DNA of 64,000 bases. Source: Eledone cirrhosa. Lineage: Eukaryota. The notes under the pieces are model-generated. The model made no database searches and was not told the DNA's origin. It saw nothing but the letters and a program-made list of their open reading frames with translations. The first letter of the stretch is position 1. The number at the start of each line of letters is the position of its first letter. Where the stretch lies: NCBI GenBank assembly GCA_964016885.1, contig OZ024742.1, forward strand, positions 75,330,001 through 75,394,000, given 5' to 3'. A program made the position numbers and the translations under genes. Below, piece after piece: positions 38,626-62,500 of this stretch.

Positions 38626-41600
38626 ATGTCGAACCTAAACAGTTCGAATAACGGTGAAGTGGAGACTAGAATGTCATGTGACAGACTCTCACCCAACAGG
38701 TGCTCCCTGGCTCAGCAGCAGGGACTTGGCTGTCAACCAAATACTGCTGGTGTCGGAGGAAGAAGAAGAAGGAAAGGGACCAGAACCAACTGGACGAAAG
38801 AATTGAATAGAACTATTATGCAATGTTACCTGAACAGTAACCCCAAGGAGAAAGGCTATAGGAAACGGATGCATAACATCTGGAACGAGATTGGTCTATT
38901 TAAATTAGATGAACAAAAAGTGGCAAGGCAGGCTCGGGTAATAAGAACTAATGGGTGGATAAGCGAGCTGGAACTGGAGGAAATGAGCAGAGAGATTAGC
39001 TTGGAAATGGAGAGTGGAGTATGCCAGGCAGACGAGCCAGGGGGAAATGAAGGTGAAGAGGTCGAGACAACGGAGGAACGATCCGAAGCAGACAATGATC
39101 TGAATGCTGAAATAAATAATACCTGGAACAGAGATACGGCCACTGAGGAGATGAATGCTGACGGGCTAGGACAAGATTTGGTTGATATCCTAAACTTAGT
39201 GGTAGATGAATTGAACAATGATAGTGGGAAACCTATGAACCTAAGATTTGTAGACAGGAAAAAGTTAAAAGAAACAACAGCTAAGGTAAACAAAGTCATC
39301 CCATACCTTGAGGCGAGGAGCCTTCACCAGTGCAACAATATCCTCAAAGCAACAGCAAATACGGTGAGGAAATTACTTGGTATAAAAGCGAGAGGAAACA
39401 ACAAACAAGAAAGATCAGAGCCTTGGTGGAAGAAACGACTGAGTGGTCCAATCAGGGAAATGAGAAATGACATTGGAAAGCTTGAGTCCCTACTGAATGG
39501 GACACTAAAAAACATAGACACTAAAAATAGACTGGAAATAAAGTACAAAACTAGGAGGAAAAAGCTAAATGTTATCATAGAGCAACTAAAGCAACGCATT
39601 GTAGCAAAGAGTGCAAAAATCAGGCGATACGAGAACAGAGTCAGTCAGTATAGACAGAACCGCATGTTTGACAACAACCAGAAGATGCTGTTTGGACAGC
39701 TTGAAGGGAAAGAAAGAGGCAACGACTTGATCCCTGAGGCGGAACACACAAAAACATTCTGGAGAGGAATATGGGAGCAGGATGTTAAACATAATGACCA
39801 GGCAGTGTGGATTGAGACAATACAGAAGGAGATTAGTGAACAGGCACACCAACAAACTGATTTGAGTATCACAGTTGAAGCTCTTAAGGGGCAGGCCAAA
39901 AAACTAACCAACTGGAGATCACCAGGTCCAGATGGTGTGCAGGGGTATTGGATTAAAAATATAACATCCCTCCACCCGAAACTGACAACCATGTTCAATG
40001 ACTGCTTGATGTCAGATGAGGTACCAGAGTTGTTGACAAAAGGTACCACAGTTCTGGTAATGAAAGACCGAATCAAGGGTAATGATGTTACCAACTATAG
40101 ACCTATCACATGTCTGTCCGTAATGTGGAAACTGTTGACAAGCATTATGTCTGAGGAAATCTACCATCACCTCCACACAAACAACTTGTTACCGGACGAA
40201 CAGAAAGGATGCCGAAAGAAGTCCCGTAGTACAAAAGACCAGTTACTTATTGATAAGATGGTAATGAGGAATTGCAAGAGGAGACACACTGGTCTTGCCA
40301 TGAGATGGATAGACTACAAAAAGGCATTTGACATGGTGCCTCATTCTTGGATCACCAAAAGCCTGGAGATCTTCAGGGTGGCAGATAACATTAGACAGCT
40401 GTTGGGCAAAAGTATGAAGTCCTGGGAAACAGAGTTAACATCAGCTGGAGAATCCTTGGGAAGCGTGAAGATCAAGAGAGGTATCTTCCAGGGAGATAGT
40501 CTGTCCTCTCTGTTGTTTGTCCTTGCCCTGATGCGCCTGACCAGTATACTGCGAAAAGTGAGAGCAGGATACAGGTTGGGAAAGGGAGGGCTTACCATCA
40601 ATCACCTCCTCTTCATGGACGATCTTAAGCTCTTCGGGAAGAGTGAGAAGTAGTTGGATGTGCTTATTGACACTGTCCGTATTTTCAGCAATGATATATG
40701 TATACAATTTGGTATTAGTAAGTGTGGAGTCCTTGTGATGAAGAGGGGTAAATTGAGCAGAAGTAATGGAATCCAGGTACCAACAGGTGACATGATAAAG
40801 GAAATTGACACTGAAGAAGGATACAAGTATTTGGGTGTTCTAGGGGATGATGACATCAAGAACAAAAAAATGAAGGAATTGTTAAGAACTGAATATATTC
40901 GGAGAGTAAGGAGCGTATTAAAGTCACATCTGAACAGTAGGAATGCCATAAGTGCAGTAAATTCCCGAGCTGTGTCTATTATTAGGTACAGTGCGGGAAT
41001 TCTGAAATGGAATGTTTCTGAACAAAAAGAAATGGATAGGAAGACTAGGAAGTTATTGACTATCTACAACATGTTCCACAAGAGGAGTGATGTCGATAGA
41101 CTCTACTTAAGGAGATCTGAAGGTGGAAGAATTCTTATCATCATAGAAGACTGTGTTCAGATGGAGAAAAACAACCTACACAAATACGTGACTGATAATA
41201 GGGAGCCAATGCTCAGAATTATACTGAAGGAGAGGACAATAGACCAGGGGATGTTCAAGGAGGAAATAACAGCAAGGAGAAAGAGCAATCTTCATGAAAA
41301 ATCCCTTCATAGTACCTTCTTTGATAAAACTGAATTTAGAGATCCACAGACATGGAACTGGTTGAAAAGAGGAAACCTTATAAAGGCTACAGAAGGAAAG
41401 CTAATGGCTGCCAAAGAGCAGGCCCTCAAAACGAAGTGGCTGAAACACCATATTTACAAGGAGGAGGCTATCCCACTGTGTAGGATATGTGGAGAGAGAG
41501 AGGAGACAGTGGCTCACATTGTATCCGAGTATAAACACCTAGCCCAGACTCACTATAAGGGCTGGAGACATGATGTGATAGGCAGGGTCATCCACTGGCA

Positions 41601-42049
41601 CCTATGCAAAGTAAACAATTTACCACATTCTGAGAAGTGGTATGAGCATAAGCCAGAGTCGGTGATAGAAAACGATCAGGTGAAAGTGCTGTAGGATTTT
41701 AGGATACAGACTGACAAGAAACTGGAACACATTAGACCTGACCTGGTGATTGTGGACAAAGAAAAAAGATCGTGCCTGATTGTGGATGTGGCCTGCCCAT
41801 TCGACACGAGAGTGCAAGAGAAGGAGAGGGATAACATTAACCGATACCAGGACTTAAAGTGGGAGGTAAAAAGGATTTGGAACTGCCATGAAGTCAAAGT
41901 GGTCCCGATTGTCATAGGCGCACTTGGTACTATCTCAAAAAGTTTCCAGGGATGGTTAAAGAAAATTGGCCCCTTCACGCTTTTTGGAACGTTTCAAAAG
42001 GCATGCTTGCTGCGAACAGCAAGAACCCTCCGATACGCCTGAACATCTG
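38626..42049 (+). pseudogene. R4/Dong-like polyprotein with in-frame TAG stops at 40651 and 41692 and a terminal frameshift
   Basis: ORFs 38626-40653, 40654-41694 and 41746-42042 are collinear in one frame. Confidence 0.9.
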
Positions 42050-42126
42050 AGGCTGCATGTAGTGGCTTGATATTCATTTCAACAAACTTCCAGTTAACTA
42101 ACATGAATGACTGAGACTCAAAGAAC
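38626..42126 (+). mobile_element. R4/Dong-like non-LTR retrotransposon (single ORF: RT, zinc knuckle, restriction-like endonuclease), copy 1; true 5' end not resolved
   Basis: Motifs: SPGPDG, NYRPITCL, EQKGCRK, DYKKAFD, GIFQGDSLS, LFMDDLKL, CRICG..EETVAHIVSE, RHD, RPDLVIVD...IVDVACPFD. Short 3' UTR, then (AAT)n. Confidence 0.92.
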
Positions 42127-42148
42127 AATAATAATAATAATAATAATA

Positions 42149-42234
42149 ATTGTTTCTACTTTTGGCACAAAGCCAGCAATTAACCAGTGTATTACTGGTA
42201 CTTTATTGTATCGACTCTGTAAGGATGAAAGGCA
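42149..42234 (-). mobile_element. 5'-truncated SINE (3' part) inside (AAT)n
   Basis: Reverse complement matches TGCCTTTCATCCTTAC...GTACCAGTAAT...TGTGCCAAAAGTAGAAACAATT of the other copies. Confidence 0.88.
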
Positions 42235-42257
42235 ATAATAATAATAATAATAATAAT

Positions 42258-43835
42258 ACCAAATACAGCTGGTGTTGGAGGAACAAGAATCAACTGGACG
42301 AAAGAATTGAAGGGAACTGACATGGAATGTTACCTGAAGAGTAACCCCAAGGAAAAAGGCTATAGGAAACGGATGCATAACAACTGGAACGAGATAGGTC
42401 TATTTAAATTAGATGAACAAAAAGTGGCAAGGCAGGCTGGGGCAATAAGAACTAATGGATGGATAAGCGAGCTGGAACTGTGGGAACTGAGCAGAGAGAT
42501 TAGCTTAGAAATGGATAGTGGAGTATGCCAGACAACCGAGCCAGGGGGAAATGAAGGTGAAGAGGTTGAGAGAACGGAGGAAGCACCGAGGTAGACAATG
42601 ATCTGAATGCTGAAATAAATAACATCTGGACCAAAGATACGGCCATTGAGGAAATGAATGCTGACGGGTTAGGACAATATTTGGATGATATCCTAAACAT
42701 AGTGGTAGATGAAATGAACAATGATAGTGGGAAACCTATGAACCTAAGATTTGTAGACAGGAAAAAGTTAAAAGAAACAACAGCTAAGGTAAATAAAGTC
42801 ATCCCATACCTTGAGGCGAGGAACCTTCACCAATGCAACAATGTCCTCAAAGCAACAGCAAATGAGGTGAGGAAATTACTTGGCATAAAAACGAGAGGAA
42901 ACATCAAACAAGAAAGATCAGAACCTTGGTGGAAGAAACGACTGAATGGTCAAATCAAGGAAATGAGAAATGACATTGGAAAGCTGAGTCCCTACTGAAT
43001 GGGACACTACAAAACATAGACACTAAAAATAGACTGGAAATAAAGTACAAAACTAAGAGGAAAAAGCTAAATATCACCATAGAGGAACTGAAGCAACGCA
43101 TTGTAGCAAAGAGTGCAAAGATTAGGCGGTATGAGAACAGAGTCAGTCAGTATAGACAGAACCGCATGTTTGACAACAACCAGAAGATGTTGTTTGGACA
43201 GCTTGAAGGGAAAGAAAGAGGCAACGACTTGATCCCTGAGGCTCACATTGTATCCGAGTGTAAAAACCTAGCCCAGACTCACCATAAGGGCTGGAGAGAT
43301 GATGTGATGGGCAGGGTGATCCACTGGCACCTATGCAAAGTAAACGATTTACCACATTCTGAGAAGTGGTATGAGCATAAGCGAGAGTCGGTGATGGAAA
43401 ACGATCAGGTGAAGGTGCTGTAGGATTTTAGGATACAGACAGACAACAAACTGGAACACAATAGACCTGACCTGGTGGTTTTGGACAATGGAAAAAGATC
43501 GTGCCAGATTGTGGATGTAGCCTGCCCATTCGGCACGAGAGTGCAAGAGAGGGAGAAAATTAACCGATACCAGGACTTGAAGTGGGAGGTAAAAAGGATT
43601 TGGAATTGCCATGACTTTAAAGGGGTCCCGATTGTCATAGGCTCAAAGAGTTTCCAAGGATGGTTAAAGAAAATTGGTCCCACCCCGATTTTTGGAACAC
43701 TTCAAAAGGCATGCTTGCTGGGAACAGCAAGAACCCTCCGATACGTCCTGAATATCTGAGGCTGCAGGTCGTGGCTTGATATCATTTCAACAAACTTTCC
43801 TGTTAAATAACATCAATGACTGAGACTCAAAGAAC
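42258..43835 (+). mobile_element. R4/Dong-like copy 2, 5'-truncated, with an internal deletion of the RT
   Basis: Aligns to 38736-39740 and then 41514-42126 of copy 1, with the same 3' end GACTGAGACTCAAAGAAC. (AAT)n flanks both sides. Confidence 0.92.
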
Positions 43836-43856
43836 AATAGTAATAAAAATAATAAT

Positions 43857-46800
43857 GATTTCTTTATTGGCCACAAGGGCTGACATCAAGAAAAACATTA
43901 CAGATGGCCCAGGACGGTACAGGACGGTACGATGTGGGTTTTGTGCGTGTAAAGATTTTTATCATTTATATAAGAAAAGAAAAAAAAGATATAGAAACAT
44001 ATATATATATAAACAATAAAAATGAAAATTGAAACAATGAAAAATTCCCCAATAGGAGGGAAACCCCCGAGGGTTACTTGTGGTGAAAACCACACAAAAA
44101 ACCACGGCCACCCTGACCACCAGGGCAAGCGCCCTTTTCTCAATTTTTTTCTCATTCCTCAAACTACAAGCGTATATTCAGAGCGGTCCCGTTCACTCGG
44201 ACCATTCTCGCTACATTCATCCACCTTTCAACAAACCTGCTAGAAGACAGCACTTGCTTCTCTACACTGATTTTCCTCTTCAAGTGAAAGTCGATAACCG
44301 GATCGTCCTATACCTTCGACATAGATCCACAAGTCAGCAATGCTCGGGCACTGAACGAGTGCGTGCACGACGGTTTCGTCGCTTTGCGCGCATCTCGGAC
44401 AGGCTCGGCTGACGGCACTTCGTGCCTGTAGAGCTTATCTCGAACCGGCAAAGATCCTCGGTAGTAATGCCATGCCAGGGATTTTTGGGAGTTATCCATA
44501 GGCTCTGGGCTGAAAGTTATCCGGAAGACAGCAAACAGCTGATTTTATTCGATGCCCAGGATCTCTCCAATAACGTCGTAGCTCTTCTCCTCCACTTGTC
44601 CTCTATAGAACGCCGAGGTGGGTGTTCCACCGATACTGGTGCCCAGCTGGCAGAGGGCAGTGAGCTCCTGGAGACATTCCAGTTTCCAAGCGCTATCCCT
44701 CGGCCTTTTCTTGACCCAGGACTGCAGTTCTGTCAAGGAGACGAGCTGGGGAAAACCGCGTCTGGCAAACGGCGACCACACCTGTTCACCGTCAAGGAAG
44801 CACCAGAGATGTCGCAGCCTCAGCGCATGTTTGCGCATCATCAGCCACGAAAGGGGTGTTGACAGCAGATGCTTCGTCTGAACATGGGAGCGCGCCCCTT
44901 CCACAAAAAGCGCAAGAGGAGGCGCTCCATTTTTGTGAGAGATGGGCTGGGGAAAGCGACGACGGTGAGGCGGTAGCAGATGGCGGATGCGATGTACACA
45001 TTCGCCACCTCCGCCCTGCATTTCAGGGACAGTTTTCTCTCGGCCCATTTCTGGGTGAGGGAGGCCATCCTGCTCGTCACTTCGCTCCAGTCTTTCTCCA
45101 TCTGGAGGTCCGGACCGAACCAGACCCCGAGCAATTTAACCGGTCCGTCCGTCCAACGCACCCGACGCTGTCGGACGACACGGACTTGCCTCTCCAGGTG
45201 TCGAGCTGTAAGCCCACCGACTTTTCCTGGTTTATCTTTGCTCCTGTCACCGCTTCGTATTCCTTGAGAGCGGTGCCGAGCATCTGGACGTGCCTGGTGG
45301 TAGACACCACAACGTTGAAGTCGTCGGCGCAAGCCGACTCGGATTTCCCGTTTCCTAGTTCACGTGGGACGCCCCTCATCGCCCCCAGTTTGTGCAGTAA
45401 CTTGCTTGAGAGCCAATACGTACAAGAGGGAATAGAGGGGACAACCCTGGCGGACTGAACGCATGAATCTGAACGGCTGCGACAGATGACCGTTCACCCT
45501 CACAACTGAGCAGATGTCGCTGGACATCACAGCGATCCAACTCCTGAAAACGGGTCCGAAACCGGCTGCCTCGAGGACCGCCGCCAGGTACCGATGGTCG
45601 ACCCTATCGAATTCTTTGGATTGATCCAAGTTGATCAGGGCCCCACCCGTGCCAGGTTCCTTAACCACCCTCTCTACGATCTATCGCATGAGGTGGAGGT
45701 TGTCGTTTATGGATCTGTCCGGAATGGTGCATGTCGGCACGTCTCCCACCAGACCATCGACGACAAGCCTCTACCTCGTTGCTAACACCTTGGCCAACAT
45801 CTGGAACTCTGCGTTTAGCAGAGTTATGGGCCTTAAGTTATCGAGAACATCCCATTGTTCGGGTCTTTTCTCACAGGCGCCACCGCTCGACGGCTCACAA
45901 AACTGGGAATGCTCCCGTGCTGCTGCCAGTTGCAGTAGACGTCTGCCAAGAGGTCACCGAACAGGTCTGGCATAAATGCATAAAGCTCTTAGGGCTGATC
46001 CATCCAAACCTGGCGATTTACCGCTCGTGCAGTTAACCATCGCATCACGTATTTCACCGGCTGTTATAGCTTTTCGCAACACTGTGCTGCGGTCGTCGAG
46101 AGCCGAGGTAGTCCGTTGATGTATGCACCGAAGTTCATACCCCGATCCCTCCCGCCGCTGATCCCCAACGGTTCAGCAATGTGCTGTTGAAAAGCCTCCC
46201 ACATCTGCTCGGGTTCGATCAACACGCACCCGTTTTGGTCAGACAAAGACCGAATTGTGGCTTGTTGCCACGTCGCGCCTCTGCCACACGGGCGCATTGC
46301 ACGGCTTTCGTCCCCTCGTGTTTCAGAGCACACGCTCTAGCACTGACAACGTAGCCTTCATGCTTTGCGTTGAAGAATTGGTCGAGTGCCAATCTCGCCG
46401 CAAGCACGTCGGTTGCGATGCCTGTCCTAAACGCCTCTTCTAGCTTTCTAACTAACTCTCCCTCTACTCTATTTTCCTCTATCACTACTTTGCTAAACCT
46501 AATCGATTCTACTTTAATTGCCCTTTTCAGGGCAAACCACCACCTGTTGTTGACGACCGCTCCCGTCAACGCCCGCTTAATTAATACGCTGATCCGGTCT
46601 CTGTAGGCTTTGCGCGCCGGGAAAGACGCGTTCAGCTTCCAGTAACCGGGTCCTTGTCTATGGAGTCTGTCTATGTCGATCTCACAGATCACAAATTTGT
46701 GGTCTGTGTAGTCGACTATTTTAAATTGTAGACAACTTATACTAGCCTAATCTAGTTCTCTGCAGAATACACGATCGAGATACGATCTGGATGACACGAT

Positions 46801-47342
46801 GGGGTTTGTCCATGTCCACATTGGCACATTCGGGTGACCCAGTCGATACGTTCACCCTCCTCCCCTATCTACTATCCCCACACAATCCCAGCGTTCATCC
46901 AAGATACCGTTCCAGTCGCCCACTAACACTAAAGAGCGGGGGGTCCAAGAAAAGTCTCTAGACGTCTGAAGAAATCTGGCCCTCCTGTCCCAGTTGGGGC
47001 GTAGACGGCTACTAGCCTGAAAGCATTGCCTTCGTTGCCGGTCACGTCCAGCACCACCGACTTACCTTCTGGGTCTAGCAAGATGGCCCGTATGGCGTGA
47101 TCCAAGCCTCTCCGAAAAAGGACGGCAACGCTCTCCCCATTCATTGACGGCTGCGAGATGCGTATACATCGTAGCCGCTGAAGATCGGTGCTTCGGAGAT
47201 TCTGGTCTCGCTGATGGCCACCACATGTATGTTTAGTGACCTGAGGTCGTTGAGCAGGTGGCCCTGCTTCCAAGATGACCCCAGGCCATGTGCATTTATA
47301 CAGTCTATTCATAGTGCGGCCATGTTGGATGAGAAACGGGGC
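43857..47342 (-). mobile_element. Tx1/L1-clade LINE copy 1 (ORF2 only: APE + RT + Zn finger; 44164-47323, many frameshifts)
   Basis: Motifs: GPGYWKLNAS, DQSKEFDRVDH, SVRQGCP, SACADD, LSLKCRA. AATAAA then an (ATT)n tail. Candidate TSD AAAATAATAAT at 43846-43856 and 47343-47353. Confidence 0.9.
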
Positions 47343-47353
47343 AAAATAATAAT

Positions 47354-50300
47354 GCTTTCTTTATTAACCACAAGGTTTACACAGAGTAAAACATTAAGGG
47401 CAATACAGAACAATACAGGATGGTACAAATGGGCATTTCTGCGTATAAAAAAAGAAAACAAAATCAGAGGAATTAACAAAAAAAAAAAATGAAAAATTCC
47501 CCAATAGGAGGGAGACTTCGGAGGGCCATTCGTGGAGAAACCCCACTTAAAAAGCCACGGTGACCCTGACCACCGGGGCAAGTGCCCTCTCCCAGTTTTC
47601 CACCTTCAATTTACAGGCACATACACGGAGTAGGGCCATTCACTCGGAGCATTCTTGTCTTTCTCACCCATCTTTCAATAAAATGGTGGGAAGAGAGCAC
47701 TTCCCTTTCTAACCTGATTTTCCTTTTCAAATTAAATTTCAAAAAGTTAATCAGGGCATCACCGAAGGGGATCAGCCCTTTCAAACGCGTCCACCACACT
47801 ATCTCTTTCGCCATGGCCACCAGACAGATAAAAACTTTCTGTCCTTCCCGGCTAAAGGAGGAGGGCGGGAAATCCTCACGATGGACTCAGCTGATAGCCG
47901 GATCCGTCCTACACACGACAGCAGGTGTTCGACATAAACCCAAGTTCGACATAAACACAAGTCAGCAATGCTCGGAAACTGGACAAGTGCGTGCAGGACG
48001 GTTTCCTCGTTCTGCGTGCATCTCGGACATGACCGGCTGACGGCACGTCCATGCCTGTAGAGTTTATCCCGAACTGGGAAATCTCCTCGGTAGCACTGCC
48101 AGGCCAGGGATTTCTGGAAGTTGTCCATAGGCCCCGGCCCGAAAGTTCTTCCGTAAAGTTTGGCTAGTTGATTTTCGTCGACGCCTAGAGTTTCCCCAAG
48201 TACGTCGGCGCTCTTCCCCTCCACTAATCCTCTATAGAACGCCAAGGTGGAGTTTCTACCGATCACATTGATCTAGAGATTTAAGCGCCTGAAGACATTC
48301 CAGTCTCCAAGCGCCCCCTCTCGGTCTTCGCTTGACCCAGGACTGCAGCTCCGTCAAGGAGACGAGCTGGGGAAAGACGCGTCTAGCAAACGGCGTCCAC
48401 ACCTGATCACCGTCGAGGAAGATATGGAGATGTCGTAGCCTGAGCGCGTGTCGGCGCATCATCAGCCACGACATGCCCAGCTCTCTACGTAGCGGGTGTT
48501 GACAGCAGATGCACCACCTGACCATTGGAGCGTGTCCCTTCCACAAAATGCGAAAGAGCAAACGCTCCAGTGCAGTCAGGCGAGGCTTAGGACAAGGCAC
48601 GACGGTCAGGCGGTAGTAGATGACGGACGCGATGTACGCATTCACGACATCTGCTCGACCTTTCAGGGATAGCTTCCTCTCTGCCCATTTCTGGGTGAGA
48701 GAAGCCACCCTATTCGTCACCTTGTCCCAGTTTTTGTCCGTCTGGAGGTCCCGACCGAACCAGCCCCCTAGCAATTTAACCGGTCCGTCCGTCCAGCGCC
48801 GAACGACGCTGTTCGACGGCATGGACCTGTCTTTCCAGGTGCCGAGCCTCAGGCCCACGAACTTTTCCTGGTTGATCATTGCTCCTGTCACCGCTTCGTA
48901 TTCTCTTAGTGTAGTGCCGATTGGCTCGATGTGTTTGGCGTTCGAAACCACTACGGTGACATCGTCCGCATATGCTGACACGGATCTTCCGCATCCTAGT
49001 TCGCGCGGGACCCCTCTCAGCGTCTCCAGTCTGTACAGTAATGCCTCGCGAGTCAATACGTACAAGAGGGACGAGAGGGGACATCCTTGGCAGACCGAGC
49101 CCATGATGTTCAACGGTTCTGGAAGGTGACCGTTTACTCTCACCACAGAGCAGATGTCGCTGAGCATGGCAGCAATCCAGCTTCTGAAGACGGGCCCAAA
49201 GCCAGCCGCCCTCAGGACTGCCTCCATATAACGATGGTCGACCCTATCGAAAGCTTTCGACTGATCTAAATCGATCAACGACCCACCCGTTCCAGGTTCC
49301 CTAGCAACCCTCTCCACGATGTAACGCATGAGGTGGAGGTTGTCGTGGATGGATCTGTCTGGAATTGCGCATGTCTACGCCTCTCCCACCAGACCACCAA
49401 CGACAAGCACCAACCTCTTTGCTACCAGCTTGGCCAAGATCTTTTTCCATACTGTTTCCCATTCCTCCTCGTGATCACAGTCTGTCTCAAGTTGTGACAG
49501 GTCGGGGAGTGGAAAATCCTCCACAGGCGTTGGTTTTGGTTGTAGCGTGGTGGGTGGTGGAGGCGCTGGTGCTAATTCTGGCGTGGCGGGTAGTGGTGGT
49601 GTTGGTTTTTTACTGTTGCTGCTACAGTTGCTGTTGTTGGTGCTGCTAAGGTTGTTTCTGTTGTTGCTGATACAGTTGTTGGTGCTATTTCTGCTGCTGG
49701 TTTTGATGGTTGAGTCACTGGGTTGGACAGGAGTAGTGGCCTCAACCTTTTAGCCTGAGGGCAGAAAGCCCTTAGGTGGGTTCCTTCGCCACAAACGACA
49801 CACCTAGGCCTTCTACCCTCAACGATTACGGTGAGGTGGCTGCCTTCATTGAGGTCTATCACCTCTGGAATTTCCTGTATGTATTTTTGGTTCGCTTGGA
49901 TCAGGAGCTCCATCCTAGATCTGGACCAGTTCTTCTGCTTTACTTTTATCGCCTCAATTACCTTTGTGTCGGCAAGGACGGCAACCATTAGCCAGTGAAT
50001 TTCAATGGCCGGCGTAACCTGGATCACCCTTATCCTTACCAGCCTCTGATTTCAATAGCTTGGGACGAGTGTGAACTCGTCACTTTTTAACTGGACCATG
50101 GAGTGCTCTCTGGCTTCCTGTGGGGTTCCAAAGAACACTTCCACGGTTCCATATTTTTGCCCACGTCTGATGTGGGTTTTTTGAGCCCACACATGTCCCA
50201 ACGCTATTTGTACCTGGGACTCGGATACCCGTTCCACTCGGCTGTTTAAATATTTATTGTGCGATATGACACGGTGCATAGGCACCGATGCTCCATGGTG

Positions 50301-51327
50301 TTAGTTGGGGGTGGGGGGTGGGGGTCGAGTGCGGCTGCCCCTGTAACCATATTTTTTTACCATTCGCTTGCCTTCATTCAATTCTTCCTGGCTTACCTCA
50401 GCCGTTTCGTTTTTGTTTGACGCTTTAGCAAACGACATATTTGGTTTTGCGATGGTATTGATGTTGTTGTTGTTATTCCTATTCTTGCTGTTGTTGCTGT
50501 TGTTGTTATTGCTATTTTTGTTGTTATTATTATTAGTTTCAGTTGTGGTGGTGGTGGTGTCAGTGGCGTTCGGCGTGGAAGAGTCGATTTTGGGAGAATC
50601 CATTTCGATATCACGAGATAATAATTTACTTTTTGTTTCGGTTGTTGCTGTGGTGGTGGTGGTGGTGATATCAGTGGTGTTCGTTGTTCTTTTTGACATT
50701 GTGGTGGTGGGGATGGCGACTTTAACACTTGTAGACATTGGTAATGGCGGGAAATCGATGTCTGCATGTGACAAATCTAAATACTTGCCACTGCTATTAT
50801 TTATATTTTTAGGGCGGTGGATTGGCAGTATCGGTAGAGGGTCGGACGCCATGCTTTGACGCATAGAGTTACGGCCCTTGCCATTCTCAGTTCAAATCCC
50901 GCCGAGGTTAACTTTGCTTTTCATCCTTACGGGGTCGATAAAATAAAGTGCCAGTAATACACTGGGTAATTGCTGGCGTTGTGCCAAAAGTAGAAACAAT
51001 TATTTATATTTTCAGTGTTGGCAACTGTAGCAAGGTTTACAATGGTGGTCGTGGGAGATGTTAGTCTGTTAGGAAACGCTGTCAGCAGATTTGGGTGGCT
51101 GAATGCCGTCAATGTTTTATTTTTCAAAGAAATCTTTTTTGGATAAAATAAAGTTTGAATTTTGGGCTCAAGGCCCCAATATTATTGAGTGTCCTTTTCA
51201 GAAAGCAATATATATGAATTAGAAAACACTTAACAACAAACGTTTTCCATAATTTGCAATTTGAAACAACTGAAAACAACAAACCTTTGTGGAGCTCACG
51301 ATAATGCGATTTCCTACGTAGGTCGCC
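47354..51327 (-). mobile_element. Tx1/L1-clade LINE copy 2: ORF1 (CCHC knuckle) joined directly to the RT by an internal deletion; interrupted by a SINE
   Basis: ORF1 contains RCVVCGEGTHLRAFCP. RT contains DQSKAFDRVDH, QGCPLS and SAYADD; CPRC..ETVLHAL follows. The 3' UTR is homologous to copy 1. The 5' end is inferred from (AAT)n resuming at 51328. Confidence 0.85.
50812..51001 (+). mobile_element. Full-length tRNA-derived SINE with 14-bp TSD
   Basis: A-box-like TGGCAGTATCGG (50823) and B-box GTTCAAATCC (50890). TSD ATTATTTATATTTT at 50796-50809 and 50999-51012. Confidence 0.92.
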
Positions 51328-53580
51328 AATAATAATAATAGTAATAATAATAAATGTGAAGACTAAACTCCAAAGAGGGCTCTATAAGGATAAATATATA
51401 TCAAATATATAAGAACTCTAGAGCAAATATTTATTAAAATAACAGATTTTCAGAAGATCCCGTTAAGTGTGAAAGCAGCGATTCTTTGCTTAAACTTTAA
51501 TCTGTTATTTTAATAAATATATATATATATACCTGTCACTGTACATAGTTACATACATGAGGATAAATTGATAGATAGATAGATCAGCTTAGATGGTTAT
51601 GTATACAGGTAGAATTATGTGAATGAAATGGAATTTGATCTACATTTATTGGCTGGAAGATAATTTTAAGAGAAACTTAGTTTGTGATGTTATTACGACA
51701 AAACTAGTAGATAATTCTCCCTCTATATATGGATTCATATCTCCTCTGCCACGAACAATTCATTTAGATCAATTGAAATAATGTGTTTTGTCAAGGATAC
51801 AACGTGACACAGAAAATGAAGCGCATGATCAACGACACAAATCCCCAAGCCACGTGCATTCAGAATAGCAGTGTAATCTACAAATGTGTTATCCTCATCT
51901 CTATCATAAGCGATAAGCATTTTACGTTACGAAAAGTTCTCAACAGAATGCCCAATTTGTATAGGAAAGGTTTTGAAGAAAGCTACATAGTTTTCTTTCT
52001 TCTTTGGCATATTTGTAGTCCTTAATACTAGGACAATTCTAATGCTCATTGCGTTTCTTTGTAGTAGATATTTTTTTTATCACAAGGCAGAAACTATTTT
52101 CTTAACCTGAAACAATAGATAATTACAACATCATTAAAAACAGTTTTCTTCCTTTACTGTTCTTTTAGTAGAATTTTGGGATATCATGTAATAATGAAAA
52201 AAGGAAACCACCAATTTGCAGAGAAATTACCAATGACGCACTCACAAACAAATTACCAACTGACAACAAATGAGGGAAACGTATCTTTTCACTACTAATT
52301 TAGCGCAGTTAAGTATACTAAATACTGCATATAAAATGTCTATATTTGTACAAAAGTTTAAATTGTTAATTTGTATCTATGATTATTTTATGACAATTTA
52401 AAATGATTTATCATAAATATAATAATACATAATTAATAAAAGCCTATTTTTTAAACATAAATTTCGAATATTACTTTTGATAACCTTAAAAGCTACGCAC
52501 TTCATTTTTCCTCACTCTTACATTCGACGATGTTTCTCACATAAAAAAACTACTATAGTTTATATCTCATTGTTGCTGTTTAATCCCAGGTCAGGTCTGT
52601 CCAAGCAAAGTGAGATATTGTAAATATTTCGTAAGTTTTCTTCAGGTGTAGAATATCAAGGACTACATTAATCACTGTGTCTTTTATTTTGTGAGACGTA
52701 AACATGTAATCTCAGTGATGCTTGGTTGCTATTTTTAGCATTTCAAGACTCCATGTAGGGGTGTAGTCATGCTTATTTATAGGTGTAAAATACTGGGGAG
52801 AAAAATAATGAAAGAACAAGTGTTTCATTATTCTTCATTCTAAACCCGAATCCGAAGGGAGTGAGTTTGTCTTATCCCTTGGCTGATTAACAAAATGTTG
52901 GCATATACTGGGGATTTATTGAATATATTATTTCGTTTAACATAATACTGTATTTGAGCGAATGTATGAAACCAAGCGAGTTTATTTATCATACAAATCA
53001 CATGTAGACAGGTTAGAACATATTCTGTTCCAGCAAACTTATCTACTAATCTATTTAGATGATCATTGCATTGCTATATTAAAAAAAGTGCAGTGGAATT
53101 TAGAAAGACACTTATTACACAAATGTAGAAAGGAATAAGCGTCAAGTATGCACAATCTGTTTGTTTCGATTAAAACCTAAAAGTTGTCCAAATGTTTCTT
53201 ATTTAATTAATGATGTGCAATTAGTAATGTTTACATATTCACATACACACATACACATGTGTATCTGTGTGTGTGTAGGTGTGTGTACATCCGCGCACAG
53301 ATGGTAGCAACCGTTTTGTATCTCAGCTTAGAAGATTTTAATTAATTCTGAATACATATGGCTAGGGTACTATGGAAATCGTTGCGTCCTATTGTGTCGA
53401 CTGCAACCCAGGAAGATACAGTAATAGAGTAAAGCAGAATTGGTAAGATTGATAATAGGGAAAAGGTGCATTCACATATAGAGAGCAATAACATAAAGAG
53501 ATGGAGAAATATATAGAGAGAGAAAGCGAAACTAATCGGGAACGAAAGAAAGAACTTGAAAGATTGAAGGATATATATAA

Positions 53581-53694
<114 letters not shown>

Positions 53695-54573
53695 ATGCCA
53701 GAGAGGAAAATAAAGCGAGAGTGTGTTCAGGCATTTTATTGTAGAGAAACAACTTCAATATATAGATCTTTTCCTTTGTTAAAATCTGTTTTCACGAACT
53801 TTTAATTGCAACGGGGAATAACGACTTCAATGTTCTCCTCATTGGTCAAGTGAGGTATATGGTGGTGTGGGATCAAGGAAATCGTTTGTGCACGCTTTAA
53901 TGATTAACTTGTAAAGTCCATCATGTTTAGACTTGTAGTGGAAAGCAAGAAATAGCAAGAATGTTAGAGAGAGGGAGGGAAAGAGAGGGAAAGGAAAAGA
54001 AAGGGGAGGTTGAAAGATAATGAGGAAAGATATAATTGCTGTCTCATTTAATGCTTCTATATATATAGTATGATTCATTAACGTCCGTGTAATCCGGTGC
54101 TGTGTGTGTGTCAGTGTTTGCTAAATGATCCTGACAGCTATGCTCAAAGTAAAAATAATACATACATATGTATATATACCTCCATACGTAGATATCTGCA
54201 TGTATGCAAATATTTGTGTTCTTTCAATGACAAACGTATGCTTACACATACACACAAGCGTGCGCACGCACACAATCACCACACACGAACACACATGCAA
54301 ACAAACACATATACGCGCTCTTATATGCAGAAATCTACAAGAACAGTGATCAGTTATCAGATGTCTCCTTCGATCTTTCACGATCTTATCTAAAAGCAGT
54401 CTTTTTTATTCTTAGTAGGATAATTAAATAGCGAGTATATCACATAGTTGATATGTAGAGGGAACATAAAAACCTGTATCTCTGGCATTCGTTTTACCTT
54501 TATTAACAAACATAGGTATGTCCTTAAAAGATATGCTTCACAGCCATGTGCTTTTCGTTATATTACCAATACG

Positions 54574-54708
54574 CATAGTTACGTCCCTTTACAATCTGAG
54601 TTCAAATCCCGCCAAGGTTAACTTTGCTTTCATCCTTACGGGGTAGGTAAAATAAAGTACCAGTAATGCACTAGTTAATTGCTGGCCTTGTGCCAAAAGT
54701 AGAAACAG
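54574..54708 (+). mobile_element. 5'-truncated SINE with 16-bp TSD
   Basis: B box and 3' body present. TSD TTATAT(T/G)ACCAATACG at 54558-54573 and 54709-54724. Confidence 0.88.
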
Positions 54709-55022
54709 TTATATGACCAATACGTAGTGCACTGGGAAAGTGTATAACATACGCTTCCGTCAACCAAAACCTTGTGAGTGAACTTTGGTTGGCGGAAATT
54801 GTGTAGAAGCTCAATGGAAGGATCGTTTTAGTATTACCTTTTTAGGCTTAACCCATAACCTGGTTTAAGTTTACTAACTGGCGTATGGTTGTCTTAAGCA
54901 GAAATCGCTTTTCTGCAAGCATTCAGATCATGTCTTTGTTCTGAAGATACTTTAATATCTTTCTCTGTTCAATCTTACAAGTTCTGGAAAAGACAATGGG
55001 CGCTGCCTTTCTTATATTATTA

Positions 55023-55150
55023 GCCATTCTGAGTTCAAATCCCCCCAATGTTAACTTTGCCTTTCATCGATACGGAGTCGATGAGATAAAGTACCAGTAA
55101 TGTACTGGATAATTGCTGGCCTTGTGCCAAAAGTAGAAACAATTATTATT
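55023..55150 (+). mobile_element. 5'-truncated SINE
   Basis: GAGTTCAAATCCC...CCTTGTGCCAAAAGTAGAAACAATTATTATT. Confidence 0.88.
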
Positions 55151-55487
55151 ACTTCGTATTGCCACATACGTTGTTCCCTCATTTTTATTCTCTTATCTTT
55201 ATTGTCCCCTTGCTTTCGATCGCTTTATCATAATTTGTTATTGTCGATCGCCATGCTTAATTATCATTTCCTTATATTTCCATCAGTAATGATTTCTTAC
55301 ATTGGCACACGATCAGAAATCATGGAAGAAGGAACAATCAATTATATCGATCCGTACTCAGTACTTATTTCATACTTATGTTATCAACGACGAAATTATG
55401 CCCTGGCGAAAGCCCCCAAGAATTACAATGTTCTCCCCGCCTTTATGATTTCCGCTTACCTTTATTGCCCTTTATTTTTCTATTCAT

Positions 55488-56221
<734 letters not shown>

Positions 56222-57735
56222 AACTACGTTTTCTCTTTCACACTAACTTCCACTTAACTGCCTCTTTTTACTCCTTCAATTTCTTCGATTGTCTTTTATC
56301 TCACATTTTCTAACTATGCAACCAAATCTATCTTTTACACTTACAGTTTCCATTATATGTCGGTTTCAAAGCTTTTCTAACATCTTCAGTAACTCCAATT
56401 AGAAATAAATGCTGGTATTTGTAAATTGTTTTCGTGTACCTTTTAGTTTGTATTTGAATGAATAATTATAATACGATTTCCTCAATTCATATCTTTTATT
56501 CAAAATTGATACTTTTAAAATAATGATGCGCCCATCACTAATATGGCAGTAGAGAAATCCCGCACTTACAACACCTATTCCCAATAACCTCAAGTAAATA
56601 AATAAAATATGTTTAATAATAGTTTCAAATGAGTTACAACTATCTTCACTTACATATAATTTTGTTTGCTTTTAATATGCATGGATTAGCTATATGGCAT
56701 TTACACAACTCAATTCTGAAATATTCTTTTCATATTAAGCACGTATCTATAGCACTGTGGATTATACACTAGATTGCTATAAACGTTTTGCAAAACAATT
56801 TCGTTTATCACATGAAAGGTAACTTTTCAAGAGAAAGATTATATTGTTTTATCAAGCCGAATATACATTCATCAATAACAATTTTGGTTCATTTATAGCT
56901 ATTATTCACTTTGGGCAACGCCAAATATTCAGTTAGTATATTTAAAAAATGTATTTTAATCTGCTTTAGTTGACTGTTCAATCGTTAATTCTATATATAC
57001 CTTATATCTGCCTTCCTCTACATATTCTAAGAAGATGTTTTTGTAAAGATACGTTTAGGAATGACACTGGAAACAATTTGTTTTACCTTTCTATTCTGTC
57101 TATATTATAATTGAATCGCATGTTTTATACAAAACATTGTTTTTCAACTAATGGAGATGACGCGTTTTTGATTGTCCGAGGAAGTCATGTCAATAAATTT
57201 AATTACATTTACTTTTCATGCTTTGCACAATCACGTTTCATCTTTCATACGCATTTTGAAGCTTTCAAGATTTATAACGAAATTTACATGAAAACAGATG
57301 AAATTTTGAAATCTACATTTTATTAAATAATTAATCGTTTCCGGTTCTAGTTCTCTGTAATAAGCAATTATATTTGCTTTATGAACAAGAACGGCATAAT
57401 GGGGCATATGTGACGCATTCAAGAAATGCTGGTTATCATATTAACAGAATCCTTTCAACAATTACCAACGCCTAATCACAAGCATGCTGAAGAAAATGAT
57501 AAGATTGATGTGATTGAACTTCGTAACAATGTTGAAAATGAATTATCTCCTTTTTCATATTGCTATTAAACTCTGCTTCATCTGCCTGAAAGTAAATGTT
57601 GTTTCCTCTGGTAATTTCATTTCCCTCCCTGTCATATCGATTGACACTACTAGAGCCAAATGTTCTCTTCAAACATTTCTATGATACGAAACACTAAATA
57701 CGTTCTTATCAATGTATCTGAGAGTGTTAAATAAT

Positions 57736-57906
57736 TGTTTCTACGTTTGGCACAATGCCAGCAATTATCCCAGTGCATTACTGGTACTTTATTTTATCGA
57801 CTCCGTAAGGATGAAAGGCAAAGTTAACTTCGGCGGGATTTGAACCCAGAATGGCAAGGGCCGCAACTCTATGCGTCAAAGCATGGCATCCGACCCTCTA
57901 CCGCCC
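57736..57906 (-). mobile_element. SINE with a short internal deletion in the head
   Basis: Reverse complement of the 50812 family, flanked by AGTGTTAAATAAT at 57723 and 57908. Confidence 0.9.
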
Positions 57907-57920
57907 TAGTGTTAAATAAT

Positions 57921-58140
57921 GATTTCTTATATAGTCACAAGGCCAGCAATTTTTGGGGAGGGAAAAGTCGTTTAAATCGTCCCCAGTATGTTACTGGTGC
58001 TTTATTTTATCGACCCCGTAAGGATGAAAGGCAAAGTTAACCTCGGCGGGATGTGAACTCAGGTCATAAAGGGCCGTAACTCTCTGCTACAAAGGATGGT
58101 GTCTGACGCTCTACCGGTACTGACAATCCACTGCCCCACC
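57921..58140 (-). mobile_element. SINE, longer-tailed subfamily
   Basis: Same head and body with an extra ~25 nt in the 3' part, flanked by AGTGTTAAATAAT at 57908 and 58142. Confidence 0.9.
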
Positions 58141-58341
58141 GAGTGTTAAATAATGACTGCTATTTCAGTCATATTTAAATTCTTCAAACTATGTATTAGT
58201 TTCATATTTATTAGAATAGGTTTTCTTTTAGTTATATAAACTTAAATATAGACTTTCGTTTCATGGATGCTAGAAAAATACCTATTAATGGGAAATAATT
58301 GAATATGATTATTTTCAGTTTTATTACTACCATTATTTAAT

Positions 58342-58528
58342 GATGGATTGGCAGTATCGGTCGAGGGTCGGACGCCATGCTTTGCAGCAAAGAGTTACAG
58401 CCCTTTATGATCTGAGTTCAAATCCCGCCGAGGTTAACTTTGCCTTTCATCTTACGAGGTTGATAAAATAAAGTACCAGTAATACACTGGGATAATTGCT
58501 GGCCTTGTGCCAAAAGTAGAAACAATTA
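58342..58528 (+). mobile_element. Near full-length SINE
   Basis: A box, B box and tail as in the 50812 copy. Confidence 0.9.
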
Positions 58529-58954
58529 TTCAATTTATAAGTTCTTACCTGAAAGAATGATAACTATCATGGATGATAACAACCCGAATTCCTGTGTTGA
58601 AACACATATTGAGACATATTCACAATACGAACGTATAACTATATCATATATTCCTAACAATTGGATTGGGTATCATTGTTTACTTGCAGAGAACAAAATA
58701 AATCGAAATAACTCCTTTCATATCACTTCTCAGCTACATAATTATCATTGGCTGGAAAAAAATTTAAATAAATTGTATTTAGTTTCGTTTCTATACATTT
58801 TAAGATGAACTTTTATAAAAGTCATATCTATCTTCACACCACTTACCTTGATGAAAATAAGTATTAGTTATCTAATGATAATAACAATATAATATTGTCC
58901 TCCACTAGAATTTCATTGCCTTGTAAGAAATTATTATTGTATGTACTCTTCTAA

Positions 58955-59041
58955 CTTTGCATTTCATCATTACGGGGTCGATAAAATAAAGTACCAGTAA
59001 TGTACAGGGTAATTGCTGTCCTTGTGCCAAAAGTAGAAACA
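58955..59041 (+). mobile_element. 5'-truncated SINE with 22-bp TSD
   Basis: TSD ATTATTGTATGTA(C/T)TCTTCTAA at 58933-58954 and 59042-59063. Confidence 0.88.
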
Positions 59042-59599
59042 ATTATTGTATGTATTCTTCTAATAGTGAAGTGCATCGTACTTTAACAGAATGTTATGGT
59101 TGTAAAAGAGTGTCGATGTTAAGTTTCATTAATTCGACCACAGTTATACTGCCAATTAGCCTTGGACGAAAAAAGAAATTCCCTCGTAAAAACTATTCTA
59201 TTGCCAAAATAGCTAACCATTCTTTCAGGAATACTGTAATTATGAATCGGTTTATTGCTTTAGCAATATACTGTCTTACTTACGTGGCGTTACTGAATGC
59301 AGTTATTAATGCTTAATTTTTAACTAGGGGCATATGCAAGACTGCGGGATTAGGAAGTAAAATTTGCAAGCCCTAAGTAATTTTCGGTTCCAATTCCAAT
59401 GCGCAGCACCTCGGCAGGTAGATTCCACCATTACCAAAGGTCGACTAAACATTTTAGCTTTCTATACATGAGTAATGTTGGAGAATAGCAATCATATTCC
59501 CAGGAAAACTCTGGGTGTTGATAAGAATCAATTGACGAAAGCAATCTCTCAATGTCCGAGGATTACTGACAGCGTAGTTTAGGTTATACGGAGTCCTTT

Positions 59600-62500
59600 G
59601 CCTAGGTCGCTAAGTAGTACGGCACCTCACACAGTGGCTAACTTAGAGCAACGAAGTGAGCTCATCAAAAAGCATATTCACCCTGCACACGTTTGTTCTT
59701 CTTAAATCATTACTTCCCACTGTTAGACACCTATTACTTTCTTGTTTTTTTGTCTTTACATTTCCTATATATTGGGTCAATAAAAGAGGTCTTCTTCTTC
59801 TTATTATTATTATTATTATCGGTCTGTTCGGACGCTTTTTGCTCGCTCCCAGTAAGTCGCTTTATTTGCCTGTTAAAATTATTTGTTGTTAAATATTTTT
59901 TGTTGTGTAAGGGATATAAGCCCTTAGACTTTGCCCTGTGAAGGGGAAAGTATAATATTTGGGCTTTTTGGCCCAAATATTTGAACATTTTACTTAAAAA
60001 CAAACAAACAAAAAAAACATGGCTGAGCCACGCCCTCCAGCAATATGTTTGCTGTCGTCTGACAATGGCGTACAAGTTGAGAGGGGGGGTTACAAAAATT
60101 GTTACAAAAGACACCACCACAAACAACGTGAACAAAGACATCACTGAGAACACTAATTTTGAAAAAAATTATCACACCAACTACAACGATAACAGCGTCA
60201 AGCAAAATGCAGACATCAGAAAAAAATGACAACAAATGCAACAAACATATTAACACCACTAACATGAAAATAAACAATGACAACACCAACAACAACAATA
60301 CAAATTGCACCGAAAACAACAACAACGGTGGCACCAAAAACACAACCAACTACAGCAGTGATAACAGCAACAACACAAACAACACCGTTTGTAGCAGTAG
60401 CAACAGCAACAGCACCAACAACAAAACCAGTAGCGGCAGCATAATGGTGCAATTGAAAAAGGGGCCACTTTTTTCGCAGATGTGGCCCGAAATATAGAAA
60501 CAGTGCTAGTCATGGAGGAGGAGATGGCAGTTACAAGAGCCATCGTGTCGAGAAACGACAATAGAGTTTCCCTGAAACCTCCACCCGTTTTTTTCAAAGA
60601 CAAGCAGCTGCGCACGGTGACATACCGCACCGTAAGCAAAATGTCACATCGGGTGGAGAGAGCCACGGAGGCTCAAATCCAAAAGGCCTTGGGGTGAGTC
60701 TGGGCGCGAAAAACCCACATCACCCGAGGCAAAAAGTACGCCACTGTAGACGTACTTTTCGCCCCCCCCCCCAAGAGGCGAAGTCTCACTCTTTGGAAAC
60801 CCTAAAGAGTGAGGAGATAGTCTTGGTGCCCTCCTACTGCTGGCAGAAAATTGTGAGGGTCAAAGTGACCCAGGTCCTGCCCGACGTGCCTATACTTTGG
60901 CTGGCCGCGTCTGTACTGGCTGCAATCAAGGAGAAGACCACCTTACTGCAAATACAGAGAATGGGAAGAGAGAACTGTTCAGGAATAGGCATGCAAATGC
61001 TAATACAGAAGGACCAGGAGTGCATCAAGGCCATCCCAGACATTATAAACCTCGAAGAAGGGCTCTAACTCCCTATAAGCGTGGAAGGAAGGCACCCAAA
61101 GTGGTATTTCTGAGGCTCACCTCAGGGCCTTCTGCCTGCAGAAGACAGCCAAGAAGAGCCCCCCCCCCCTTCCGACGCCTGATCCGCTACTACAAGAGCA
61201 GGGCAGGCAACAGAGGCAGAAGACCCTTCCATGGTGAGTAGGATAGCAACGTCCGTGGCACCCATACCAAGGCCACGAACAACTAAAGCAGTGGCAGCAG
61301 TGGCGGCAACACTAACAGTCGCAGTAACTACACAGGCGGTAAAATCGCCGGAGCTTGCACCACTACCATCACCAACAGCAGTGGAGCTCATGCCCCTCCT
61401 GAATGCCGCGGGGTCCGACATGGAGTGTGAGGCGGGGGGGGGGGGGGGGGGAGTGGCAAACGGTCTTCCACAAAAAAAGAAAAAAGAAAAAACCCTTAGC
61501 TTCACCCTGTAAAAGCGAAGGCAGACAAAGAGGGGTAAAGGCTGCAAGGAGACTTGCAGCAACACCACCACAAGCATCACCACCAACAACAACTACACCA
61601 CTACCAGCATCACCAGAAACACCAACATCGCAAACACAAACAAAACACACACCCAACAGCAACAACAAGAAAACAGCAACAAAATCGCCCCGCCCCCCAA
61701 AAAGTACACAGCCATAAAAATGGCAAATAAAAAATTCTTACAACACATAATGGAGCACACAGACATCACAGAAAAAAACTACTACACCCCACCAACACCA
61801 AGAACTCTCCCGACAAACATAAGCATCATTGAAATCTCAATAGAACATTACAAACTTTTAAAGCAAAAATTCCCCAACGCAGTTGGAGACTTCAGAGGGT
61901 CGGTTACCAAGAGGATATACACCGACATCCTCTTGGAAACACCCATGACCAGCGAAAGGGTGGGTTCTACTGTCCCTTCACCACATGATCAAGGTAAGTG
62001 ATCCTTTCTCACTTACCCCGTTTCTCATCTAAAATGGCCGTACTTAGAATAATCAGTATACATGTACGTGGCCTGGGGTCATCTTGGAAGCAGGGTCACC
62101 TGCTCGACTGCAGGTCACTAAACATAGATGTGGTGGCCATCAGCGAAACCAGAATCTCCGAAGCACGAGCCTTCACATCGATCTTCGGCGGCTACGATGT
62201 ATACACATCCACTAGCCGTCCAGGATAGGGGGGAAGGGTTGCCGTGTTTTTCAGAGAGGCTTTGATCTCGCCATACGGGCCATCTTCCTGGAACCAGAAG
62301 GTAAGACGGTGGCGGCGGACGTGACCGGCAGCGATCAATGCTTTCAGGCTAGTAGCTGTCTACGCGCCAGCAGCGGTAGGACGGCCAGATTTTTTCAGAC
62401 GTCTAGAGACCTTTCTTGGAACGTCCCGCTCTTTAGTGCTAGTGGGCGACTGGAACGATATCTTAGATGCACGCTGGGATTATGTGGGGCTAGTAGACAG

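Follow-up and report, generated by a model that had tools for sequence, protein, structure and literature searches.

Which enzyme copies the abundant short interspersed elements (SINEs) of octopods? The question is raised by a 64,000-nucleotide stretch of the Eledone cirrhosa genome (assembly GCA_964016885.1, contig OZ024742.1, positions 75,330,001 to 75,394,000, forward strand; hereafter the window), in which SINEs and Tx1-like long interspersed elements (LINEs) share the 3' signature CCTTGTG-N8-AGAAA-N2-ATTATT in element sense (the motif). The original prediction, made from the letters of the window, took this signature for a bipartite recognition sequence with an ATT tail, by which a LINE of the Tx1/L1 group would mobilize the SINE. 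Our analysis points to an ATT-targeting Tx1 family as the likely carrier, with the shared 3' end now described as a small predicted hairpin and the ATT bases as the target.

The Tx1-type LINE is the best candidate for a partner, as had been proposed. All 30 Tx1 copies picked by open reading frame 2 (ORF2) alone carry the exact motif, 230–248 nt downstream of ORF2, and 93 of 104 distinct Tx1 3' ends read without requiring the motif have it (11 do not). An intact ORF2 of 1,139 aa contains Exo_endo_phos, RVT_1 and zf-RVT domains and matches human L1 ORF2 with E=5e-52 and R2 with 1e-21. It is 74% identical to a protein of Argonauta hians, indicating an octopod host, and the only clade-naming match among the 120 listed is the ‘transposon TX1 uncharacterized 149 kDa protein’ of alligator (41% over the reverse transcriptase (RT) region). 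By similarity, the two LINEs of the window in which the motif was first seen are assigned to the L1/Tx1 group. The ATT-targeting Tx1 family is young: for the last 180 aa of ORF2, all 150 scored genome matches were 100% identical, many of them in open frames of 1,195–1,204 aa. In a quick tree, built from 71 rows of this genome plus five database homologues, the ATT-targeting families were not resolved as a single clade. Intact Tx1 copies also occur in tandem runs at ~6.05-kb spacing (e.g. C1:234592724-234617928 and C1:441104837-441135696), and ATT-type families at loci L060-L079 combine a common ORF2 (95% for A and B) with unrelated 5' untranslated regions (UTRs) and ORF1 starts, which suggests 5'-end swapping.

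The motif is abundant and specific. The six exact matches in the window, whose coordinates and strands had all been given correctly, compare with none in 100 shuffles, and allowing up to three mismatches gave 11 matches against 0.10 expected; one of these, at 55285, has neither a SINE nor a LINE body and seems to be a chance occurrence. Genome-wide (3.0 Gb) the exact motif is found 171,924 times and the reversed-pattern control not at all. LINE-type spacers with AATAAA account for 11,049 of the exact matches, and a strict SINE-type tail precedes ATTATT 133,410 times. In a random sample of 58 stretches of 10 kb at round positions (580 kb), 56 matches with up to two mismatches comprised 48 SINEs, 2 Tx1s and 6 unassigned cases, read by eye as SINE fragments. 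Thirty matches with a LINE-like upstream base gave 18 SINEs, 9 Tx1s and 3 unassigned, and no LINE with a SINE-type spacer was seen among 30 loci. The N8 spacing, at first regarded as fixed, is mostly so, but the genome holds 972 spacer-7 and 7,172 spacer-9 versions, and a single ATT-targeting Tx1 family has one extra base. The constancy is inherited from master copies, and the spacer-9 variants (4%) are scattered over subfamilies; the spacer-7 and spacer-9 variants look like recurrent slippage. A separate spacer-9 SINE subfamily was considered and is unsupported, the spacer-9 copies among those listed being scattered over subfamilies and mostly having a longer A-run. Tail variants with unassigned upstream sequence were noted at loci L029, L045, L235 and L279 and may be additional Tx1 families or non-autonomous derivatives.

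The SINE is short, non-coding and dispersed, with forms of ~190 and ~220 bp, 5'-truncated copies and target-site duplications (TSDs) with a median of 14 bp. A-like and B-like motifs lie ~65 nt apart; ARAGORN found no tRNA gene and Rfam no tRNA match, returning simple-repeat noise only. A tRNA origin for the SINE is plausible. Nearest-neighbour distances start at 0.6% (90 copies), and SINE and Tx1 both appear to be young and concurrently active.

The TSDs define the target. Among 174 SINE-tailed copies, 88 had an exact TSD of at least 9 bp, and in 65 of these the duplication opens with the first A of ATTATT; another 10 are SINEs in tandem whose arrangement agrees with the same cut. TSD lengths over loci ranged from 9 to 27 bp, plus one 50-bp ATT run, with a median of 14 bp among the 65. 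The claim that SINE TSDs mostly begin with ATTATT stands; the lengths first given for them were 13–22 bp. In 131 copies unselected for ATTATT (median TSD 14 bp), positions 1–5 read ATTAT at 92–96% each and the sixth T reached 79%; the base preceding the cut was C in 54%, T in 45% and G in 2%, A being under-counted by the method. Variant targets (ATTATA, ATTAAT, ATTATG, ATTACT and ATTATC; 12 of 46 unselected offset-0 TSDs) were identical on both flanks, with no ATT added. The possibility that ATT is a tail of the element was rejected, since TSDs start at ATTATT and variant targets are duplicated unchanged. The original prediction of an ATT tail replacing poly(A) thus holds in part: poly(A) is absent from the 3' junctions of SINE and Tx1, which pass straight into ATTAT, but ATTATT is the start of the TSD. 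In the window, TSDs measure 13–15 bp in four SINE copies and 25 bp in the copy at 42.1 kb, and no exact TSD of at least 9 bp was found for the copies ending at 55147 and 58530.

The Tx1 flanks agree with this target. An (ATT)n run borders the 5' end in 17 of 20 fetched copies, the other three being internally deleted and unreadable there, and at least four ATT repeats follow the tail in 28 of 30 young copies, less so in older families. Together with the SINE TSDs, the 5' ATT of Tx1 implies an AGAAA-NN terminus for both elements and insertion at Y^ATTAT. The final base of Tx1 tails is C, so that the target is rebuilt, which fits the observed stacking: by eye, what comes next after the 30 young Tx1 copies is a further Tx1 head in 11 cases, a reversed R2-like tail in 10 and a SINE in 2–3. 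SINEs also sit exactly at Tx1 tail junctions (loci L046, L218 and L066). Unique TSDs were not found for Tx1; 4 of 23 truncated-looking copies gave ATT-repeat matches only, and most of these copies are internal deletions. AATAAA, present at 43857-43870 in the window and in all Tx1 tails and absent from the SINE tail, is a possible polyadenylation signal.

The shared 3' end is predicted to form a small RNA hairpin with a 3-bp stem and a 5-nt loop, followed by an A-rich stretch ending in AGAAA-NN. This replaces the bipartite motif with a free N8 spacer that had been envisaged, as the start of N8 is part of the stem. The loop is closed by the C that opens CCTTGTG and the G that ends it, and the first N8 bases pair with bases upstream of CCTTGTG. 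The youngest LINEs read AACC-loop-GGUU, older LINEs AGCC- or GGCC-loop-GGCY and the SINE UGGC-loop-GCCW. Over 17 hand-picked lineage representatives (12 LINE and 5 SINE rows), a 4-pair stem was 82% paired, with a covariation of 0.322 (0/500 shuffles; slid controls at most 0.119). Pair 1 is C-G in all 17 rows, pair 2 is C-G in the 12 LINE rows and G-C in four of the five SINE rows, and pair 3 is G-C in 15 and A-U in 2. The three inner pairs have pairing probabilities of 0.73–1.00 in 16 of the 17 tails, the exception being a copy with a private change, and 107 of 111 short and 28–30 of 34 long SINE copies retain pairs 2 and 3. In 100-nt tails, long-range folds did not reach significance (z -0.7 to -1.4).

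A sister Tx1 clade, found by reading Tx1 3' ends with no motif requirement, serves as a natural control. Its families carry the same stem and AATAAAGAAA followed by TATC repeats, and they form one clade in the quick tree (Shimodaira–Hasegawa-like approximate likelihood ratio test, SH-aLRT, 99). Tx1 tails at TATC-type sites number 10,991 genome-wide, 4,077 of them with the CUUGU loop; CCUGU, CUGGU and CUAGU variants also occur in the clade (e.g. loci L306-L335). A Tx1 ORF2 lies upstream in 24 of 30 fetched TATC loci, and some copies are 99.3–99.7% identical. SINE tails precede TAT(A/C)TA only 205 times, nearly always as TATATA (2 of the 100 listed are TATCTA), versus 133,410 times for ATTATT, whereas random DNA contains about one TATCTA for every two ATTATT (612 vs 1,236). 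The near-absence of SINEs from TATC sites despite the common hairpin indicates that the hairpin is diagnostic of the Tx1 group and the target of the carrier.

Taken from sequence, these data suggest a model in which the SINE is likely copied by the ORF2 of the ATT-targeting Tx1 through target-primed reverse transcription, with hairpin binding, a nick at Y^ATTAT and RNA–DNA pairing that aids priming. RNA polymerase III would transcribe the SINE on into the flanking ATTATT, Tx1 ORF2 would bind the tail hairpin and its endonuclease would nick the ATAAT strand; the AUUAU end of the RNA would then anneal to the freed primer, and reverse transcription would begin at NN. The annealed stretch of the RNA 3' end would be long in the case of LINE read-through and some six bases in that of the SINE. 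Such annealing would explain why SINEs are missing from the sites of TATC Tx1s with the same hairpin, and also why LINEs, with long AUU read-through, are found in long ATT arrays and SINEs at any ATTAT. The array difference could alternatively reflect a less selective older Tx1 family or tail extension during LINE insertion. Recognition of the SINE tail by Tx1 may well be of the stringent type. More tentatively, and as an idea that we hold to be possible rather than probable, the system would work as a two-key lock and be the first animal SINE–LINE pair of the Tx1/L1 group with a shared 3' hairpin: the hairpin, common to local Tx1 clades, would recruit ORF2, and pairing of the RNA end with the nicked microsatellite would pick the clade.

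Several observations weigh against carriage by an ATT-targeting Tx1 through its hairpin. The element-borne shared sequence is short, ~23 nt with 14–18 identical; the 23 of 28 identities first counted between the long SINE and the Tx1 copy at 43851 are correct, but six of them are target bases. The outer pair of the stem is unpaired in 11 of the 17 representatives, and SINE tails fold no better than shuffles (z +0.4, 51-nt tails). The covariation support is modest but specific, as it amounts to two independent double changes among related rows, for which the shuffle count is not a probability. Runs of at least four ATT repeats accompany 14 of 174 SINEs, near the background of 166 in 1,850 sites and far from the proportion in young Tx1. 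Among TATC Tx1s, the young 99%-identical copies carry the CCUGU loop, and the best matches of CUUGU copies are 88–98% within the sample (one overlapping locus aside); a difference in age may therefore account in part for the SINE not being moved by the CUUGU copies. The best identity of the SINE tail is 17–18/23 to TATC families versus 16–17/23 to ATT families. The original prediction had named a better match in another LINE family as a point that would count against it, and in part such a match exists, TATC Tx1s being equal or one base better, though with a different target.

This identity, and the 4,077 TATC tails with the CUUGU loop, would suit carriage by the TATC-targeting Tx1s or by a common ancestor of the two clades. 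The 205 SINE tails at such sites against 133,410 before ATTATT, in spite of the roughly twofold difference between the two hexamers in random DNA, make this highly improbable, although the TATC clade could be the historical donor of the SINE tail. The ATT-targeting carrier might also act in a relaxed manner, with the hairpin a relic of the origin of the SINE from a Tx1 3' end and with the ATTAT preference of the endonuclease and pairing of the AUU-rich RNA end at the nick being sufficient. The stem of only 3 bp (about -3 kcal/mol), the lack of unusual structure in the SINE tail and a partner specificity that follows the target and not the loop are in keeping with this; however, all Tx1 lineages preserve the stem pairing even though their ORF2 C-termini differ by up to ~40%, and the SINE preserves it via a double change and in the large numbers of copies given above. 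We consider relaxed carriage unlikely.

A LINE of another clade (Dong/R4-type, RTE or CR1) is also a very improbable carrier. Dong-type elements are abundant here and use the same microsatellite, and our census of other LINEs spans 580 kb only. Against this, the R2-like elements have a 3' end of unrelated sequence that closes with (AAT)n, on the opposite strand, the tail of RTE-like copies, likewise unrelated, runs into (GAT)n (3' ends were read for RTE and R2-like elements and none for CR1), none of the 56 random motif matches followed a non-Tx1 LINE, and none of the 30 matches with a LINE-like upstream base was assigned to another LINE. The RTE-like tail ending in (GAT)n was observed at loci L122, L126, L145, L159, L163 and L165, and short elements with a related end lie near SINE loci (L015 and L027); the two may form a second SINE–LINE pair.

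The elements of the window are listed in Table 1. The three Tx1 copies are all decayed, and Tx1-1 and Tx1-2 are arranged head to tail within the AAT stretch that ends an R2-like LINE, a type that we take to be of the Dong/R4 clade. Tx1-2 has lost one stem C, and beyond the window Tx1-3 ends in the same tail and an ATT run (L138:1571-1650). The AAT tails of R2-like LINEs are recurrent landing pads for Tx1 and SINEs in the opposite orientation, also at ~10 of 30 young Tx1 loci. Elsewhere, the window contains a large satellite array with a 29-bp period (1 to ~30000) and a Penelope-like element (33371-36227; RT and GIY-YIG) with long inverted arms (877 nt at 97%).

Table 1. Mobile elements and 3'-end features in the window, with positions counted from its first base
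Feature	Position	Strand	Description
Two R2-like LINE copies	38626..43850	+	(AAT)n tails are the landing sites of one SINE and Tx1-1
SINE, 5'-truncated	42151..42235	-	In AAT tail of R2-like LINE; ATT TSD 25 bp
Tx1-1	43851..47347	-	Decayed Tx1-like LINE, 5'-truncated just upstream of ORF2, GCCAATAA-type tail; 3' end inside AAT tail of R2-like (presumed Dong/R4-type) LINE
ATTATT at Tx1-1 3' junction	43851..43856	-	Probable target, by analogy with SINE TSDs and ATT flanks of full-length Tx1
Tx1-1 predicted 3' hairpin	43870..43880	-	3-bp stem, 5-nt loop CUUGU, then AATAAAGAAA
Tx1-2	47348..51328	-	Internally deleted Tx1-like LINE, ATT run at 5' flank; 5' UTR and ORF1 region 51328-49443, RT to 3' UTR 49442-47348
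Short SINE, full-length	50810..50998	+	Antisense insertion in Tx1-2 5' region; TSD 14 bp from ATTATT
Short SINE, 5'-truncated	54571..54707	+	
Short SINE, 5'-truncated	55023..55141	+	
Short SINE	57736..57907	-	In tandem with long SINE; identical TSD at all three flanks
Long SINE	57921..58141	-	Extra ~33-nt segment upstream of tail; TSD ATTATTTAACACT
Short SINE, near full-length	58341..58524	+	A-box-like and B-box-like motifs
Short SINE, 5'-truncated	58952..59041	+	TSD 13 bp
Tx1-3	59820..64000	+	Third Tx1-like LINE, ATT run at 5' flank, runs past window end

SINEs are reported to make up 11.6% of the O. vulgaris genome, where most recently active SINE families are described as unclassified in the available part of the report (PMC13282606), and no named carrier for octopus SINEs was found in the portions of the literature accessible to us. 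On the more tentative two-key reading, a single active Tx1 lineage would drive a major part of octopod SINE expansion. An animal Tx1 case matters because L1-group tail-sharing pairs are rare (3 of 58 in 2012, all in green plants, as given in the accessible text), and it is relevant to the question of whether the ancestor of L1/Tx1 already had stringent recognition. With its intact ORF2 copies and its two sister clades that have one hairpin but different targets, the genome offers a natural pair for the study of SINE partner choice, in which hairpin binding, endonuclease specificity and RNA–target annealing are separable.

The SINE may be one of OK, OR1 and OR2, tRNA-derived octopus SINEs reportedly described by Ohshima and Okada in 1994, or correspond to a Repbase or Dfam entry; OK, OR1 and OR2 are likened to it by description only, as abundant octopod SINEs. 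In the parts available, octopus repeat papers report abundant SINEs along with L1-Tx1 and Dong-R4, with no partner named (PMC13282606, PMC8967140), and bivalve SINE partners are given as CR1, CR1-Zenon, L2 and Nimb (PMC11481361). The accessible sections of four further papers report no Tx1 tail partner (PMC4824008, PMC4758252, PMC5786205, PMC7245038), and neither a tail-sharing Tx1–SINE pair nor a carrier for this SINE was found in the available literature outside Repbase, Dfam, SINEBase and Repbase Reports.

Known systems share individual features with the octopod pair, as far as the accessible portions of their descriptions tell. The crocodilian SINEU was assigned to Tx1-Mar by target preference and overlapping age (Kojima 2015, PMC4494074), so that a Tx1 carrier was inferred there, as here, from a common target and age. 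SINEU differs in having small nuclear RNA heads and poly(A), and no LINE with the SINEU-1 3' end is described (PMC4494074), whereas the octopod SINE has tail sequence, predicted hairpin and target all in common with Tx1, and no poly(A). Tail-sharing SINEs of the L1 group comprise 3 of 58 pairs, from maize and Chlamydomonas (Ohshima 2012, PMC3472496; 2013, PMC3747384). ZmSINE2 and ZmSINE3 with LINE1-1_ZM, and SINEX-3_CR with L1-1_CR, combine an L1-group LINE and a SINE with a common 3' end, as here, and the monocot pairs have a hairpin with compensatory changes; these plant and green-alga pairs are poly(A)-ended, share 45–80 nt, and none is named as Tx1 (PMC3472496, PMC3747384). Microsatellites are targeted by Kibi ((TC)n), Koshi ((TTC)n), crocodilian Tx1 families ((TTCC)n/(TTTC)n) and Dong ((TAA)n), much as in E. 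cirrhosa, but neither the ATT and TATC targets nor an associated SINE is recorded for the listed Tx1 families, which were compared by target only (PMC4494074, PMC3812793). The stringent L2 tails of ZfL2-1, ZfL2-2 and UnaL2 have a 3' stem-loop with a variable stem and a specific loop recognized by ORF2 (Hayashi 2014, PMC4176376). The likeness lies in the stem-loop with a variable stem, its recognition being assayed there and predicted here; the difference is that those elements belong to the L2 clade and their partners are separated by the loop, while the two Tx1 clades of this genome have the loop in common and are set apart by their targets (PMC4176376). Stringent pairs being a known kind, the octopod elements are probably a stringent-type SINE–Tx1 pair with microsatellite targeting.

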